Shown: positions 50,064 through 54,505 of the stretch, piece after piece
Numbering within the stretch: position 1 is the stretch's first letter
Layout of the letters: the number at the start of each line of letters is the position of its first letter
Source of the DNA: an uncultured Alteromonadaceae bacterium
Lineage (GTDB): Bacteria > Pseudomonadota > Gammaproteobacteria > Enterobacterales > Alteromonadaceae
Length of the DNA stretch: 64,000 nt
Reading direction: 5' to 3'
Assembly (NCBI GenBank): GCA_947503265.1
Contig: CANNDC010000021.1
Span: forward strand, 4,797-68,796
Notes under the pieces: model-generated
What the model saw: only the letters and a program-made list of their open reading frames with translations
Databases searched by the model: none
What the model was told of the DNA's origin: nothing
Position numbers and translations under genes: made by a program

Positions 50064-52109
50064 GTGATATTACACAGTTCTTTTTTCTCGACCATTTTTT
50101 TCCTCACAATTGCTAGCACCTTTTCGCTTGGCCTCGGCAAAGTCAATGCCAGTCAAAATGAAAATAATACGGACATAACTGAACATGCACACCAACAAGA
50201 ACAGCATAAAAATCATCAAGATGATGAGCATGAACACGGAGTCGAATCAATCCTTGTTCTGGCAACGCGCGGTAGCCGCACGGTAAGTAATGAACCCATT
50301 CGAGTGGAAGTTATCGTTGGTGAAGAAATCCAAGAGAAAGCCCTTATGCGTCCGGGGAATATATCAATGCTTGTTGCGGAGACTGGGGGAGTGAGAGTGC
50401 AAACCACGTCACCCGCCCTTGGCAGTGCAAATATACGCTTACAAGGCCTGTATGGTCGTTATACACAATTGCTCAACGATGGGCTACCTCTGTATGGCGG
50501 TCAGGCATCTTCAATCGGTCTATTGCAAATTCCTCCCACTGACTTATCTTCAGTCGAAATAATCAAGGGTTCTGCCTCTTCACTTTACGGAGGGTCGGCG
50601 ATGGGTGGTGTTATAAATCTTGTTTCACGTCGGCCCTCTGACCATTTCGAAGGCGAAGCGCTTGTAAACGTGACATCACGAGACGGGCAAGACCTAACGA
50701 CCTACCTTGCATCTCCCATTACAGACACTATAGGTGCATCATTCACTGGCGGGGGCCATTATCAACACGGTCAGGACTTTGATAACGATGGCTGGCTGGA
50801 TATGGCTGAATACGAACGTTTCACCGCTCGACCTAGATTGTTTTGGGAAAACGATGAAGGAACAAGTTTGTATGCAACGATTGGATTGATGACTGAAAAT
50901 CGAAACGGTGGAACTCGTATAGGACAAACAGTGCCAGATGGTAGCCCTTTTGTCCAAACACAAGATACTGAACGATTTGACGTGGGTTTAATCGCAAAAG
51001 GCATTGCTGGAGATGCTCTAAATTGGACAGTACGTAGCTCGGTTATGACGCAAAATCACGATAAACAATTCGGTTCCGTAGCAGAGAACGATCGCCATGA
51101 AAGCTATTTATTCGAGGGCACTCTGGCAGGATATTCAGCAAGCTCACACTGGGTTTTCGGCGTGGCAATGCAATCAGAGCGCTTCTATTCAGATGACTTC
51201 AGTGGCTTTGATTACGAATTTGATGTACCCGGCTTGTTTGCTCAGTTGGACTATGATCACAACGAGGATTTATCGACTTCCATAAGCGCTCGATTAGATG
51301 ACCACAGTGAATATGGAGAACAATTTAGTCCGCGAATTTCAATTCTTTACCGCCCTAATGATTGGACTATTCGCGCATCTCATGGGCGTGGTTATTTCGC
51401 CCCTACGCCCTTTGTCGAAGCTATAGAAGCAGCAGGGTTGTCACGGTTAGCCCCGTTAAACGGGCTCGAAGAGGAAACGGCTAGAACATGGTCATTGGAT
51501 ATTGGTTACCAACTTGGCAAACTAGAAACCAGTGTGACCCTGTTTAATTCAAATGTTGAAGGCGTGACTGAACTTGAGGCATTTGCTTCTGAAATGAATG
51601 GCTCGCTCAATCGAGTACAATTAGTCAACGCAATGGGCGAATCCCGTATTTTTGGTTCTGAGTTGTTACTACGTTATAAATGGAACGACTTTAAACTGAC
51701 TGCCAGCTATCTGTTCCTAGACGCGACTGAGTATGATGAATCAAATCAGCGTCGTCAGTCCATCGAGCTGACTCCGCGTCACTCTGCTGGCTTTGTTGCT
51801 ATGTGGGAACAACATGGAAAAGGTCGTTTGGGGTTTGAAGCCTATTACACTGGGGAACAACGTTTGGATGGCAATCCCTTCCGACAAGAAAGTAAACCGT
51901 ATTGGCATTTAGGTCTTTTGGGTGAAATCACCTTGGGCAATGTGAGTTGGTTTGTCAATGCAGAAAATTTACTGAATATCCGTCAGACACGAGACGATCC
52001 CCTAGTTTTGCCAACACGCGCACCCGACGGTCAATGGACAACCGATATTTGGTCGCGCAATGATGGATTCATTGTGAATGCAGGTGTTAGGGTTAAATTT
52101 GGTGGCTAA
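50064..52109 (+). CDS. TonB-dependent outer membrane receptor with His-rich N-terminal segment
   Basis: Plug motifs IRLQGL.GRYTQLL.DG, VEIIKGSASSLYG..AMGGVINL; NAENLLN; C-terminal VRVKF. Confidence 0.92.
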   Translation: MILHSSFFSTIFFLTIASTFSLGLGKVNASQNENNTDITEHAHQQEQHKNHQDDEHEHGVESILVLATRGSRTVSNEPIRVEVIVGEEIQEKALMRPGNISMLVAETGGVRVQTTSPALGSANIRLQGLYGRYTQLLNDGLPLYGGQASSIGLLQIPPTDLSSVEIIKGSASSLYGGSAMGGVINLVSRRPSDHFEGEALVNVTSRDGQDLTTYLASPITDTIGASFTGGGHYQHGQDFDNDGWLDMAEYERFTARPRLFWENDEGTSLYATIGLMTENRNGGTRIGQTVPDGSPFVQTQDTERFDVGLIAKGIAGDALNWTVRSSVMTQNHDKQFGSVAENDRHESYLFEGTLAGYSASSHWVFGVAMQSERFYSDDFSGFDYEFDVPGLFAQLDYDHNEDLSTSISARLDDHSEYGEQFSPRISILYRPNDWTIRASHGRGYFAPTPFVEAIEAAGLSRLAPLNGLEEETARTWSLDIGYQLGKLETSVTLFNSNVEGVTELEAFASEMNGSLNRVQLVNAMGESRIFGSELLLRYKWNDFKLTASYLFLDATEYDESNQRRQSIELTPRHSAGFVAMWEQHGKGRLGFEAYYTGEQRLDGNPFRQESKPYWHLGLLGEITLGNVSWFVNAENLLNIRQTRDDPLVLPTRAPDGQWTTDIWSRNDGFIVNAGVRVKFGG

Positions 52110-52124
52110 CTGGGATTATCAAAA

Positions 52125-52781
52125 TCAGGTAAACAATTTCTGAAACCAACCTTTTTGCAATTCAGCTTCGCAGGTTTTTAATTGAGTGGCGTACCTTAAC
52201 GAACGGGCATGCACTTTTTTTGCGACTGGGATCAACCATTTCTTTTTGTTATAGGTTTTTCGTTTAAACCCGCCCCACCCTTCATGATAATTTAGGTATT
52301 GCGCATAGGCATCCCATTTAGAAATTCCATTTACCTTATAGGTTTTACTGATGAACCACCCCATAAAGTCTAACGCATCATCAAAATCATCTCTGTCTGC
52401 ACCGGTATTTTTTGTTTCCCGCACATAATCCGCCCAGGTAGGTGTTTTAGCTTGCGAATAACCATATGCAGAGCTTATTCGGCCCCAAGGAATTAAGCCA
52501 AAAAATACATAGTCTTTCGGTGGTAAGGCATCAGCTCTGAACGAGCTTTCTTGATACATGATTGCCATAGGCACATGGATAGGAACGCCCCATTTATCTT
52601 TCATATCTGAAGCTGAATCATACCAGCCAGATTTTTCATGAAAAATATGACAAATATTGCTTATATTTTTAGGTTGAGTGGCAGTACAGGCCCCTAAAAC
52701 AAAGGCCAGCATGATAGAAGCACCTAAATAAGCAAAATTATTTTTAAATAAATTTTGATTTTTTGTGAACTTCTTGACCAT
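52125..52781 (-). CDS. Transglycosylase SLT-domain lipoprotein
   Basis: Lipobox LGAC; AIMYQESSF catalytic Glu; SSAYGYSQA; YLNYHEG. Confidence 0.85.
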   Translation of the reverse strand: MVKKFTKNQNLFKNNFAYLGASIMLAFVLGACTATQPKNISNICHIFHEKSGWYDSASDMKDKWGVPIHVPMAIMYQESSFRADALPPKDYVFFGLIPWGRISSAYGYSQAKTPTWADYVRETKNTGADRDDFDDALDFMGWFISKTYKVNGISKWDAYAQYLNYHEGWGGFKRKTYNKKKWLIPVAKKVHARSLRYATQLKTCEAELQKGWFQKLFT

Positions 52782-52798
52782 TTGTGACTCTTAATTAA

Positions 52799-52867
52799 CG
52801 TGTTCTAGTAATTGTGTGTTTTCCCTGGTAGTAGTTTAATGCCTGACCTTGTGTCAGGCATTTTTTT
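52799..52867 (+). ncRNA. Candidate sigmaE-type small RNA, convergent with gshA
   Basis: GAACTT(52767)-N16-TCTTA(52789) promoter-like motif; strong plus-strand terminator at 52838-52867 between two minus-strand genes; 5' end estimated. Confidence 0.45.
52838..52867 (+). terminator. Intrinsic terminator, plus strand
   Basis: AATGCCTGAC-CTTGT-GTCAGGCATT with T7 run. Confidence 0.8.
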
Positions 52868-52924
52868 ATCCAAGGTAATAAACATTGTGACACTTAATAT
52901 CGCGAAGAATTTCAAATCTCTAGA

Positions 52925-54505
52925 TTAATATTCAAAATAATTTTTCAAAAATTCATCAAATGAGACGTTATCCGCTTGTTCTTTAGCTTGCTGCTGTTTA
53001 ATGGATGTTTCCGCCAATGCAGCAAATTCTGAGTCTGAAAAAATTTGATAGTCAGTTGCTTTAAGTTGATCACGATAGGCTTGCGCCAATTCCATTCCCA
53101 ACTGCCCGTTGTCTTTATTTCCAGCCAACAAATCAGATAAAATAACAGCTGAGGGTGTTTTACTCGAGTCCACAACCTTTTGCCACTGCTGCTCAACAGA
53201 CTGGGTAAACAAGGTATTGTCGTTTGCATTGTCTAGCACCTTTGCAATTTCGCGCATGTGCTCAAAAATTGGGCCGGCCCATTCTTGAATGCTAACTGGG
53301 TTATTTTCTCTCTTTAACCGCAACTCTGGGTCACGACCATTCACGACCACACTACTCAAATTGTCTTCGGTCTCTTGATATTGAGCATCTGTCATCATTG
53401 CGCTGGGAGCGACCAAACAATAGGTTAGAAATACATCGAGGAAATAAAACTGACTCTTTTCTATGCCCACTGCACTAAATGGATTTACATCCAAGGCCCT
53501 GACTTCAATGTAATTAACTCCTCTCTCGGCTAATGCATCGGTCGGTTTCTCTAGTGGCTTAGTTGGCTGTTTAGGTCGAATTGGAGAGTACAATTCGTTT
53601 TCAATTTGCAGAACATTACTATTCAACTGTTGGTATTCGCCATTTATTTTACCTTCAAAAGCACGGTATTTTTCAGAGGGCGTTTTAATCGCTTTTCGCA
53701 CCGAATTGATATAGGTATCGACTTTGTTATAGCAGATGGAGAGGTCTGACTGTTCTGAATTTGTATACCCTAAATCACTCATACGTAACGAAGTAGCATA
53801 AGGCAAATATATCGATCCCTTGCCCAACTTTTGAAACGGTAAATTCGTCTTTTTTCCTTTGATAAAAGAGCCACACAAAGCGGGCGATGCACCAAATAGA
53901 TAAGGTATCAGCCAACAAAAACGGCGATAATTTCTGACCAATGCAAAATAGGCTTCAGATATGGTGTCTTTGTTCGCTTCTTTTGCTTCGGATTCTTCAA
54001 GCCATACTTGCCAAAACTCATCGGAAAATGAAAAATTGAAATGCACGCCGGAAATAGCCTGCATGGCACTGCCATAGCGGTTTTTTAATCCGACTCGATA
54101 GAGTGTTTTCATTTTGCCAATATTCGAGGTGCCATAGTTGGCTATAGGGATATTTTCGTCACCTTGGACGAAGCAAGGCATGCTTAAAGGCCAAAGCATT
54201 TCTTCACCCATGTGGGATAGCACGTTTTTATGAATATCGGTCAGTTGCTTGATTGTTTTGTCTGGGTTTGTTTCAGGGGGTGTGATGAACTCCAACAAAG
54301 ACTCAGAAAAATCAGTGGTAATATATTCATGGGTCAGAGCTGCCCCTAGCATTGGTGGATGAGGAGTTTGCGCCAAACTGCCGTTTGGATTAATGCGCAA
54401 AGTTTCTCTTTCTACTCCATGTTTAATTTGTGGCAGAGTGGCAGAAACAGCCGGTTTAGCTAGCAGGTTCACACGTTCTGAAAATGAAGCAGGCTTTGAC
54501 GTCAA
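52925..54505 (-). CDS. gshA: Glutamate-cysteine ligase
   Basis: GVERETLR, ITTDFSESLLEF, WPLSMPC, MQAISGVHFNFS, YATSLRMSDLGY, IENELYSPIRPK. Confidence 0.99.
   Translation of the reverse strand: MTSKPASFSERVNLLAKPAVSATLPQIKHGVERETLRINPNGSLAQTPHPPMLGAALTHEYITTDFSESLLEFITPPETNPDKTIKQLTDIHKNVLSHMGEEMLWPLSMPCFVQGDENIPIANYGTSNIGKMKTLYRVGLKNRYGSAMQAISGVHFNFSFSDEFWQVWLEESEAKEANKDTISEAYFALVRNYRRFCWLIPYLFGASPALCGSFIKGKKTNLPFQKLGKGSIYLPYATSLRMSDLGYTNSEQSDLSICYNKVDTYINSVRKAIKTPSEKYRAFEGKINGEYQQLNSNVLQIENELYSPIRPKQPTKPLEKPTDALAERGVNYIEVRALDVNPFSAVGIEKSQFYFLDVFLTYCLVAPSAMMTDAQYQETEDNLSSVVVNGRDPELRLKRENNPVSIQEWAGPIFEHMREIAKVLDNANDNTLFTQSVEQQWQKVVDSSKTPSAVILSDLLAGNKDNGQLGMELAQAYRDQLKATDYQIFSDSEFAALAETSIKQQQAKEQADNVSFDEFLKNYFEY

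Follow-up and report, generated by a model that had tools for sequence, protein, structure and literature searches.

The gshA-SLT_4 intergenic region

This analysis concerns a candidate small RNA (sRNA) gene in a marine Aliiglaciecola genome of 4.88 Mb (Alteromonadaceae). It lies in a 64,000-nt stretch of contig CANNDC010000021.1 (assembly GCA_947503265.1, positions 4,797 to 68,796), hereafter called the window, which carries a single copy of it. Two genes on the minus strand enclose a gap of 143 nt. On one side is a gene for an SLT_4-family lytic-transglycosylase-like lipoprotein of 218 aa (52125-52781; Pfam SLT_4, 3.7e-77), whose product begins MVKKFT... and whose start codon is the CAT at 52779-52781. 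On the other side is gshA, encoding glutamate-cysteine ligase (52925-54505; Pfam Glu_cys_ligase, 4.3e-169). The sRNA unit is located in the gap on the plus strand, convergent with gshA, and the sRNA is a full complement of the sequence that precedes the SLT_4 start codon. A prior inspection of the nucleotide letters (the sequence-only reading) had described a hairpin with a U-tract on the plus strand flanked by two minus-strand genes, preceded by GAACTT-N16-TCTTA. Both were found as described, the promoter motif at 52767-52793 and the hairpin by inspection and by a terminator scan.

The predicted sRNA is about 68 nt long (52800-52867, plus strand), begins with GTGTTCTAG, and is matched by a covariance model at 52799-52868 with 97.3 bits. 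Its first nucleotide is placed at G52800 from the 6-nt gap after the -10 element, as in E. coli micA. Within the unstructured 5' two-thirds lies a single-stranded core, TGTGTGTTTTCCCTGGTAGTAG (52813-52834), which is presumed to be the seed. It is anti-Shine-Dalgarno-like (UUUUCCCUGG) and identical in 16 of 16 aligned sequences. The part of the RNA that does not vary is the unpaired UGUGUUUUCCCUG, and the invariant stretch UGUGUGUUUUCCCUGGUAGUAG resembles an extended anti-Shine-Dalgarno (anti-SD) sequence. An A/U-rich linker connects the core to a Rho-independent terminator (52838-52867) with a 10-bp stem, a 5-nt loop and a T7 run. The stem arms AATGCCTGAC/GTCAGGCATT occupy 52838-52862, and the T7 run at 52861-52867 is present on the plus strand only. 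When a 71-nt stretch was folded, the predicted energy was -15.1 kcal/mol (z = -2.4), and the 5' 40 nt were predicted to be unpaired. The RNA thus has the architecture of an Hfq-type sRNA, with a U-tail of at least 6 nt, an A/U-rich stretch before the terminator and a single-stranded seed, and the genome contains hfq (83% identity to E. coli over 81 aa).

The promoter extends into the SLT_4 coding sequence. Upstream of it, an A/T-rich stretch resembling an UP element was read at 52740-52764, and T-rich runs precede the -35 element in all aligned species. The opposite strand of this stretch encodes the Lys/Asn-rich n-region of the SLT_4 signal peptide. The sigmaE-type -35 element GAACTT (52767-52772) lies inside SLT_4 codons 4-5 (Lys-Phe). 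It is followed by a 16-nt spacer that holds the SLT_4 start codon (52773-52788) and by the -10 element TCTTA (52789-52793), for which relatives have TC(A/T)(T/A)(A/T) at equal distance. The -35 hexamer and about half of the spacer overlap the first SLT_4 codons, a point that had been overlooked in the sequence-only reading.

Conservation and distribution of the unit

Conservation is confined to the unit and is unevenly distributed within it. When the window was compared with relatives by BLAST, only the promoter-to-terminator block (52759-52870) was matched. An alignment of the regions downstream of gshA, as had been called for, was made from 16 sequences of Aliiglaciecola, Paraglaciecola and Fluctibacter, and it showed that the promoter motif, the core and the terminator are all conserved across species. 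Mean identity to the window is 0.99 for the -35 hexamer, 0.48 for the spacer, 0.77 for the -10 element, 0.41 for the discriminator, 0.81 for the sRNA 5' end, 1.00 for the 22-nt core TGTGTGTTTTCCCTGGTAGTAG and 1.00 for the T-tail, and it is 0.18 for the 57 nt between the terminator and the gshA stop codon. The conserved block opens at GTGTT and closes at the T-tail. Thirteen loci had been fetched by a 21-nt core pattern, and since eight of them duplicated BLAST loci, 5 of the 16 aligned sequences owe their presence to that pattern. The same core invariance is seen in the BLAST-found loci, which are free of this bias.

The terminator helix gives evidence on the strand. Over 37 sequences, 92% of the cells in the helix are paired, and 5 of the 10 base pairs have changed on both sides. 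The covariation score was 0.30, against 0.14 in shuffles, and the observed value was reached in 0 of 500 shuffles. Some of the stem pairs are G-U, which correspond to C-A on the minus strand, and the T-tract is on the plus strand in all 37 sequences. Since the G-U pairs and the T-tract fit only the plus strand, the hairpin belongs to a plus-strand transcription unit and is not merely the end of gshA.

The promoter elements are retained with similar regularity. The distance between the -35 and -10 elements is fixed in more than 35 Alteromonadaceae species, and the sequence between them drifts; the spacer is 16 nt in length, or 17 nt in some genera. A GAAC-type -35 and a TC-type -10 are visible in all but three of the 57 covariance-model matches examined, units of tandem arrays included. 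One of the exceptions is masked by Ns, one is a unit with GAACGA, and one is a weak off-family match. Among these 57 matches the spacing is 15-17 nt, mostly 16-17, and the distance from the -10 element to the conserved 5' GUGUU is about 5-7 nt. The usual form of the promoter is (T/G)GAACT(T/A)-N16/17-(G/C)TC(A/T)(T/G)A with a T-rich stretch upstream. GAACTT is translated as Lys-Phe in 33 of 34 species, at residues 3-5 of an SLT_4 signal-peptide n-region that is otherwise hypervariable. Fluctibacter retains the hexamer but translates it in a different frame (Lys-Val-Gln), and extra tandem copies retain it outside any open reading frame (ORF). Because the hexamer is kept irrespective of frame and also outside ORFs, its conservation acts at the DNA level. 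The -35 box that doubles as the Lys-Phe codons of SLT_4 is under a dual constraint, as DNA and as protein.

When 301 Alteromonadaceae genomes from 59 genera were sampled, a covariance model of the family (R1) matched 93 of them, from 25 genera (E <= 0.01); the weakest of these matches are probably terminators only. All 32 tested loci with at least 42 bits are flanked by the 3' end of gshA and the 5' end of SLT_4. SLT_4 adjoins the sRNA in every verified family member, and the gshA neighbourhood is kept too. Outside the Alteromonadaceae, R1 and a further model, R2, gave only matches of 29-35 bits; eight were inspected and judged false, being neither near gshA nor preceded by the promoter motif. 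Rfam 15 contains no family for the window RNA at either gathering or permissive thresholds. The matches obtained, such as those to Hrs12, Esr41 and SorX, were weak and driven by the terminator. A literature search found no paper on sRNAs of these genera. One locus with the exact core and the Alteromonadaceae-type order gshA-sRNA-SLT_4 comes from a record titled 'Flavobacterium sp. W21_SRS_FM6' (NZ_JBGQOM010000011.1, our locus L022). Its label is probably wrong, or else the assembly is contaminated.

In some relatives the unit has been multiplied in place. The gshA-SLT_4 gap of Paraglaciecola holds 9 units in a one-contig genome (G259; locus L068, C1:1643500-1650000), 10 units in a second genome (G221; L070, C1:1520500-1526000), and at least 10 units in a third, whose assembly has gaps (G277; L069, C34). 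Two units each were found in two genomes of another genus (g39; L072 and L073). The array units are 170-420 bp long and all in plus orientation, and each has a GAACT(T/A)-N17-GTCATA promoter, an RNA of 63-68 nt and a terminator. The 5' 24 nt, UGUGUUUUAGUUUAUGUGUGUUUC, are constant, and the next 10-15 nt vary between units. A further genome, G306, has a small additional cluster away from the locus (L071).

Proposed assignment of the promoter to sigmaE

A true RpoE is encoded in the genome, with a score of 324 bits where the cut-off is 236. The rpoE gene stands beside what seems to be nadB, the arrangement known from E. coli, and carries the promoter GAACTT-N16-TCTAT. The window promoter is of the RpoE type (GGAACTT-N16-TCNNA) in a genome with rpoE. 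A promoter weight matrix was built solely from the sRNA promoters of other species and scanned over this genome, and the window promoter ranked second or fifth genome-wide, depending on the block widths. The matrix also picked sites located 40-210 nt ahead of several further genes, among them those for a DegP/DegQ-type protease and an Slp-family outer-membrane lipoprotein, and gspC. In E. coli, degP and the slp paralogue yeaY are classic members of the sigmaE regulon. The sigmaE-type promoter proposed in the sequence-only reading is thus borne out to the extent that the identical type of motif stands before rpoE and a degP-like gene in the same genome.

The top match of the matrix is a second sRNA gene of about 60 nt, outside the window on another contig of the same genome (C18:17794-17890, corresponding to 395-491 of locus L168). 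It sits between polA and engB, with no SLT_4 nearby, in the gap that Spot 42 occupies in E. coli. Downstream of its promoter TGAACTT-N16-CTCATA come GGUUUUUAUGUGUUUUCUCUCAG..., a hairpin and a U7 tail. At least seven Alteromonadaceae genera retain this sibling, promoter included, and its terminators covary among them; it has no Rfam match. Its seed UGUGUUUUCUCU is similar to the seed UGUGUUUUCCCU of the window RNA. TonB-dependent receptors, which stand out among the predicted targets of the window RNA (see below), are only weakly enriched among those of the sibling.

Predicted targets and proposed mode of action

For target prediction, 3933 genes were called crudely, and the 26-nt core was folded against positions -70 to +60 of each. 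The best duplex was the cis site upstream of SLT_4, a perfect complement at -55..-28 from the start codon with -43.7 kcal/mol. TonB-dependent receptors, a class that was picked after the target list had been viewed, accounted for 5 of the top 20 predicted targets, with 58 such genes among the 3933 (hypergeometric 7.7e-6; Mann-Whitney p 2.6e-4). In the controls, the number of receptors in the top 20 was 0-2 with 16 shuffled cores and 0 with the 5' end of E. coli MicA. A TonB gene, encoding 219 aa on the minus strand of contig C1, was also within the top 20. The predicted duplexes, for example CCAGGGAGACAUACAUG and AAAGGGAAAACAUAUG, span the SD sequence and AUG of the receptor mRNAs; one receptor site is kept in the orthologues of four genomes, and another varies. 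The unpaired stretch had been suggested as a possible seed for ribosome-binding sites (RBSs) of outer-membrane protein mRNAs, and the predicted pairing over the SD and AUG of receptor mRNAs agrees with this suggestion. The receptor class, post hoc as its choice was, nonetheless falls within the outer-membrane expectation stated beforehand; the receptors are predicted targets. OmpA did not emerge as a target: only OmpA_C-domain proteins were found in this genome, and the five OmpA_C-like genes rank 777th or lower.

From these observations, the unit is most probably a genuine sRNA gene of about 68 nt with an RpoE-type promoter, whose product would act in trans on outer-membrane protein mRNAs and also on SLT_4 in cis; we put the probability of this reading at roughly 0.78. 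RpoE-containing polymerase would start at about G52800 from GAACTT-N16-TCTTA and stop at the hairpin and U-tail at about 52867. Envelope stress, by freeing sigmaE, would cause the RNA to accumulate, and together with Hfq it may pair with mRNAs for outer-membrane proteins over their SD and start codon and block their translation, which would lower the load on outer-membrane assembly. The main predicted targets in this genome are the TonB-dependent receptors and a TonB gene. With a promoter inside the first codons of SLT_4 and an RNA antisense to the upstream region of that gene, the unit would probably also damp SLT_4 in cis, as MicA does with luxS. The anatomy of the gene, the deep conservation of its promoter, seed and terminator, its strand, the occurrence of rpoE and hfq and the tie of the motif to rpoE and degP are observed; that the gene is transcribed, that it depends on sigmaE and Hfq, and every one of its targets are inferred.

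Several observations weigh against this reading. The bare motif GAACTT-N16-TCWWW has 32 matches genome-wide, against about 36 expected from a base-composition estimate. As the promoter motif alone occurs at chance frequency, the evidence for it is comparative, in that its conservation and its coupling to a terminator exceed chance. The -10 box overlaps the likely SD (GAG) of SLT_4, an overlap that may partly explain why the box is conserved. About 16 further, weaker ECF-type (extracytoplasmic function) sigma genes are present in the genome, and a 'GAAC' -35 box is a feature shared by ECF sigmas in general. The energies of the trans duplexes, that is, of all predicted duplexes other than the cis site, are no better than those of shuffled cores, and the receptors were singled out from a list already seen.

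Evaluation of alternative explanations

Three other explanations were weighed. According to one, no sRNA exists: the conserved block would be a minus-strand element, the promoter or 5' leader of SLT_4, with the hairpin doing no more than terminating gshA. The block does lie directly upstream of SLT_4 on that strand, where its -10 element overlaps the possible SD, and gshA needs some terminator, for which the hairpin is the only strong one in the gap. Yet the T-tract is on the plus strand alone in 37 of 37 sequences, and the G-U pairs of the stem would become C-A mismatches on the minus strand. Repetition of a promoter-body-terminator unit 9-10 times in Paraglaciecola, always in plus orientation, is unlike the behaviour of a leader; the sibling at polA-engB has the same promoter and seed with no SLT_4 near it; and GAACTT is kept in another reading frame and outside ORFs. 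Taken together, these facts make a mere leader and terminator very improbable. It is somewhat less improbable, but still unlikely, that the sRNA is real and its promoter is read by another ECF sigma or by sigma70, which would place the RNA in a different stress regulon. The number of ECF-type genes and the generic nature of AAC-containing -35 boxes among ECF sigmas speak for this possibility. On the other hand, the motif matches the promoter of rpoE itself, in its nadB-rpoE arrangement, as well as that of E. coli micA; the matrix also picks the degP/degQ-type protease gene and the Slp lipoprotein gene, and scanning the plus strand upstream revealed no sigma70-like promoter.

The most probable of the three, though still unlikely, accepts both the RNA and sigmaE and makes the RNA mainly cis-acting: as a sigmaE-driven antisense it would silence SLT_4 in envelope stress, and its trans targets would be minor or absent. 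MicA, from an identical gene layout, affects luxS in cis (PMC2956633). The perfect complement upstream of SLT_4, a promoter that would fire from inside the SLT_4 ORF, and the sRNA-SLT_4 neighbourhood kept in every verified member are all in line with this view, as are trans energies that do not exceed those of shuffled cores. Nevertheless, the 22-nt core is invariant across genera even though an antisense partner could co-vary with it, which suggests that it has other partners. Neither the tandem arrays nor the polA-engB sibling with its similar seed have a cis partner, and the enrichment of TonB receptors is specific to the real sequence. A mainly cis role is thus doubtful, and an sRNA acting in trans on outer-membrane protein mRNAs as well as on SLT_4 is preferred.

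Relation to MicA and to known sigmaE-dependent sRNAs

The locus resembles that of MicA in several respects. The order luxS(-) micA(+) gshA(-) in E. coli K-12 is the same arrangement as SLT_4(-) sRNA(+) gshA(-) in the window, so that the comparison with the MicA position made in the sequence-only reading holds; the neighbour is SLT_4 here and luxS at E. coli micA. Both RNAs run towards the 3' end of gshA and are antisense to the upstream sequence of a divergent minus-strand gene. The window promoter is also like that of E. coli micA (TGAACTC-N16-TCTGA, 6 nt, +1 G, A/T-rich upstream). MicA and the window RNA are both about 70 nt long, with an unstructured 5' half, UCCCUG about 25-30 nt from the 5' end and a U-tailed terminator. 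For MicA, long luxS transcripts are the antisense partner, on which it acts in cis (PMC2956633).

Formal tests, in contrast, do not identify the window RNA as MicA, in keeping with the earlier remark that its sequence is not recognisably MicA. The Rfam MicA model (RF00078) gave no match in the window at the gathering threshold of 41 bits, nor at E <= 10 on 251 nt; in controls it scored 83.9 bits on E. coli and 47.4 bits on a genome of family f10. The MicA seed that pairs with ompA, GCGCAUUUGUUAUCAUC, is absent from the window RNA. In the opposite direction, model R2 applied to E. coli micA matched the terminator only and did not recover MicA. Because these tests fail, the window RNA is classed as an analogue of MicA in position and function. 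Descent from a common ancestor is plausible, and the odds that the RNA is a diverged orthologue are roughly even.

The 3' flanks of gshA were also scanned in other families of the same GTDB order. A sigmaE-like promoter followed after 55-90 nt by a terminator, convergent on gshA, was found in at least five other families. Within the Alteromonadaceae, such an sRNA is present in divergent genera (loci L099, L102, L104, L118 and L122, with two copies each at L104 and L118). Family f23 has one at L100, L105, L111 and L114, with both CGCAUUGUUCAUC and UUUUCCCCUGGGUAUG, and family f4 has one at L129. In family f26 (L106-L113) it is again beside SLT_4, and in family f2, which has two chromosomes, there are two tandem copies (L127, L128). 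In families f10 and f20 the sRNA lies beside luxS and is MicA, as recognised by Rfam (f10) or by eye (f20). The RNA of f2 and f26, which reads GUGCAAGA(A/G)UUGUUUUUUUCAUU... up to an AGGAGCC hairpin, is a different short RNA convergent on gshA and is not in Rfam; its promoters are TGAACCA-N16-GTCAGA (f2) and TGAACTC-N16-(C)CTTA (f26). Possible intermediates are the RNAs of family f23 and L122. In L122, UUUGUUUUCAUCCCUGGAUUC corresponds to UUUGUUAUCAUCAUCCCUGAAUUC of MicA and UCAUCCCUGGAUUC to UCAUCCCUGAAUUC of MicA, and 12 of 13 nt are shared with the MicA core. The Rfam MicA model scored L122 at 15.4 bits (E = 3.3), which is not significant, and L129 was likewise not significant. Run without filters, model R2 reaches L122 (E = 7e-4), L102, L127, L099 and L100.

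One tentative interpretation is that the gshA 3' flank is an ancient slot for sigmaE-dependent sRNAs, shared across the order, of which MicA would be the enterobacterial form. The slot would then be older than the split of the Enterobacteriaceae, Vibrio-like, Shewanella-like and Alteromonadaceae lineages; the seed would have been retargeted from OmpA to TonB-dependent receptors; the Paraglaciecola arrays would carry diversifying seeds; and a second sRNA with the same seed would occupy the Spot 42 slot. We regard this scenario as somewhat less likely than not. For the evolution of sRNAs, it is of interest that promoter type, position and architecture persist across the order while the seed changes. 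In the literature MicA is confined to the Enterobacteriaceae (PMC4618604), and Rfam and such earlier surveys miss the syntenic counterparts.

Similarities extend to other sRNAs of the sigmaE regulon. Like RybB, MicV and VrrA, the window RNA has a sigmaE-type promoter, a short Hfq-type architecture and predicted repression of many outer-membrane protein mRNAs at the RBS. MicV, VrrA and RybB share one seed, which in MicV of Vibrio is CRCUGCUUUU, and micV adjoins argH (PMC6694218). That seed is not present in the window RNA, and the loci differ. The occurrence of two sRNAs per genome with a shared U-rich seed, UGUGUUUUCCCU and UGUGUUUUCUCU in the present case, parallels MicV and VrrA (PMC6694218).

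Tandem arrays of sibling sRNAs also have precedents, namely LhrC1-5 in Listeria and NsiR1 in Anabaena; LhrC is induced by envelope stress and carries UCCC motifs. The Paraglaciecola arrays are like these in that every repeat has its own promoter and terminator, but the organisms, the sigma factors and the sequences are unrelated.

Judged by these features, the window RNA is the representative of an undescribed sigmaE-type sRNA family of the Alteromonadaceae in the MicA slot and belongs with the sigmaE envelope-stress sRNAs. Such sRNAs form the repressor arm of the Gram-negative envelope-stress response, and to our knowledge they have been characterised only in enterobacteria and Vibrio. In the Alteromonadaceae, abundant marine heterotrophs in which TonB-dependent receptors dominate the outer membrane, the locus provides a case that can be tested. 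A promoter shared with a coding sequence, a sibling that shares the seed and the amplification into arrays in relatives add to its interest.

A last observation concerns the other end of SLT_4. The terminator scan detected none between the end of a TonB-dependent receptor gene at 52109 and the SLT_4 stop codon at 52125. The receptor gene (50064-52109, plus strand) and SLT_4 (minus strand) converge here with a gap of only 15 nt.

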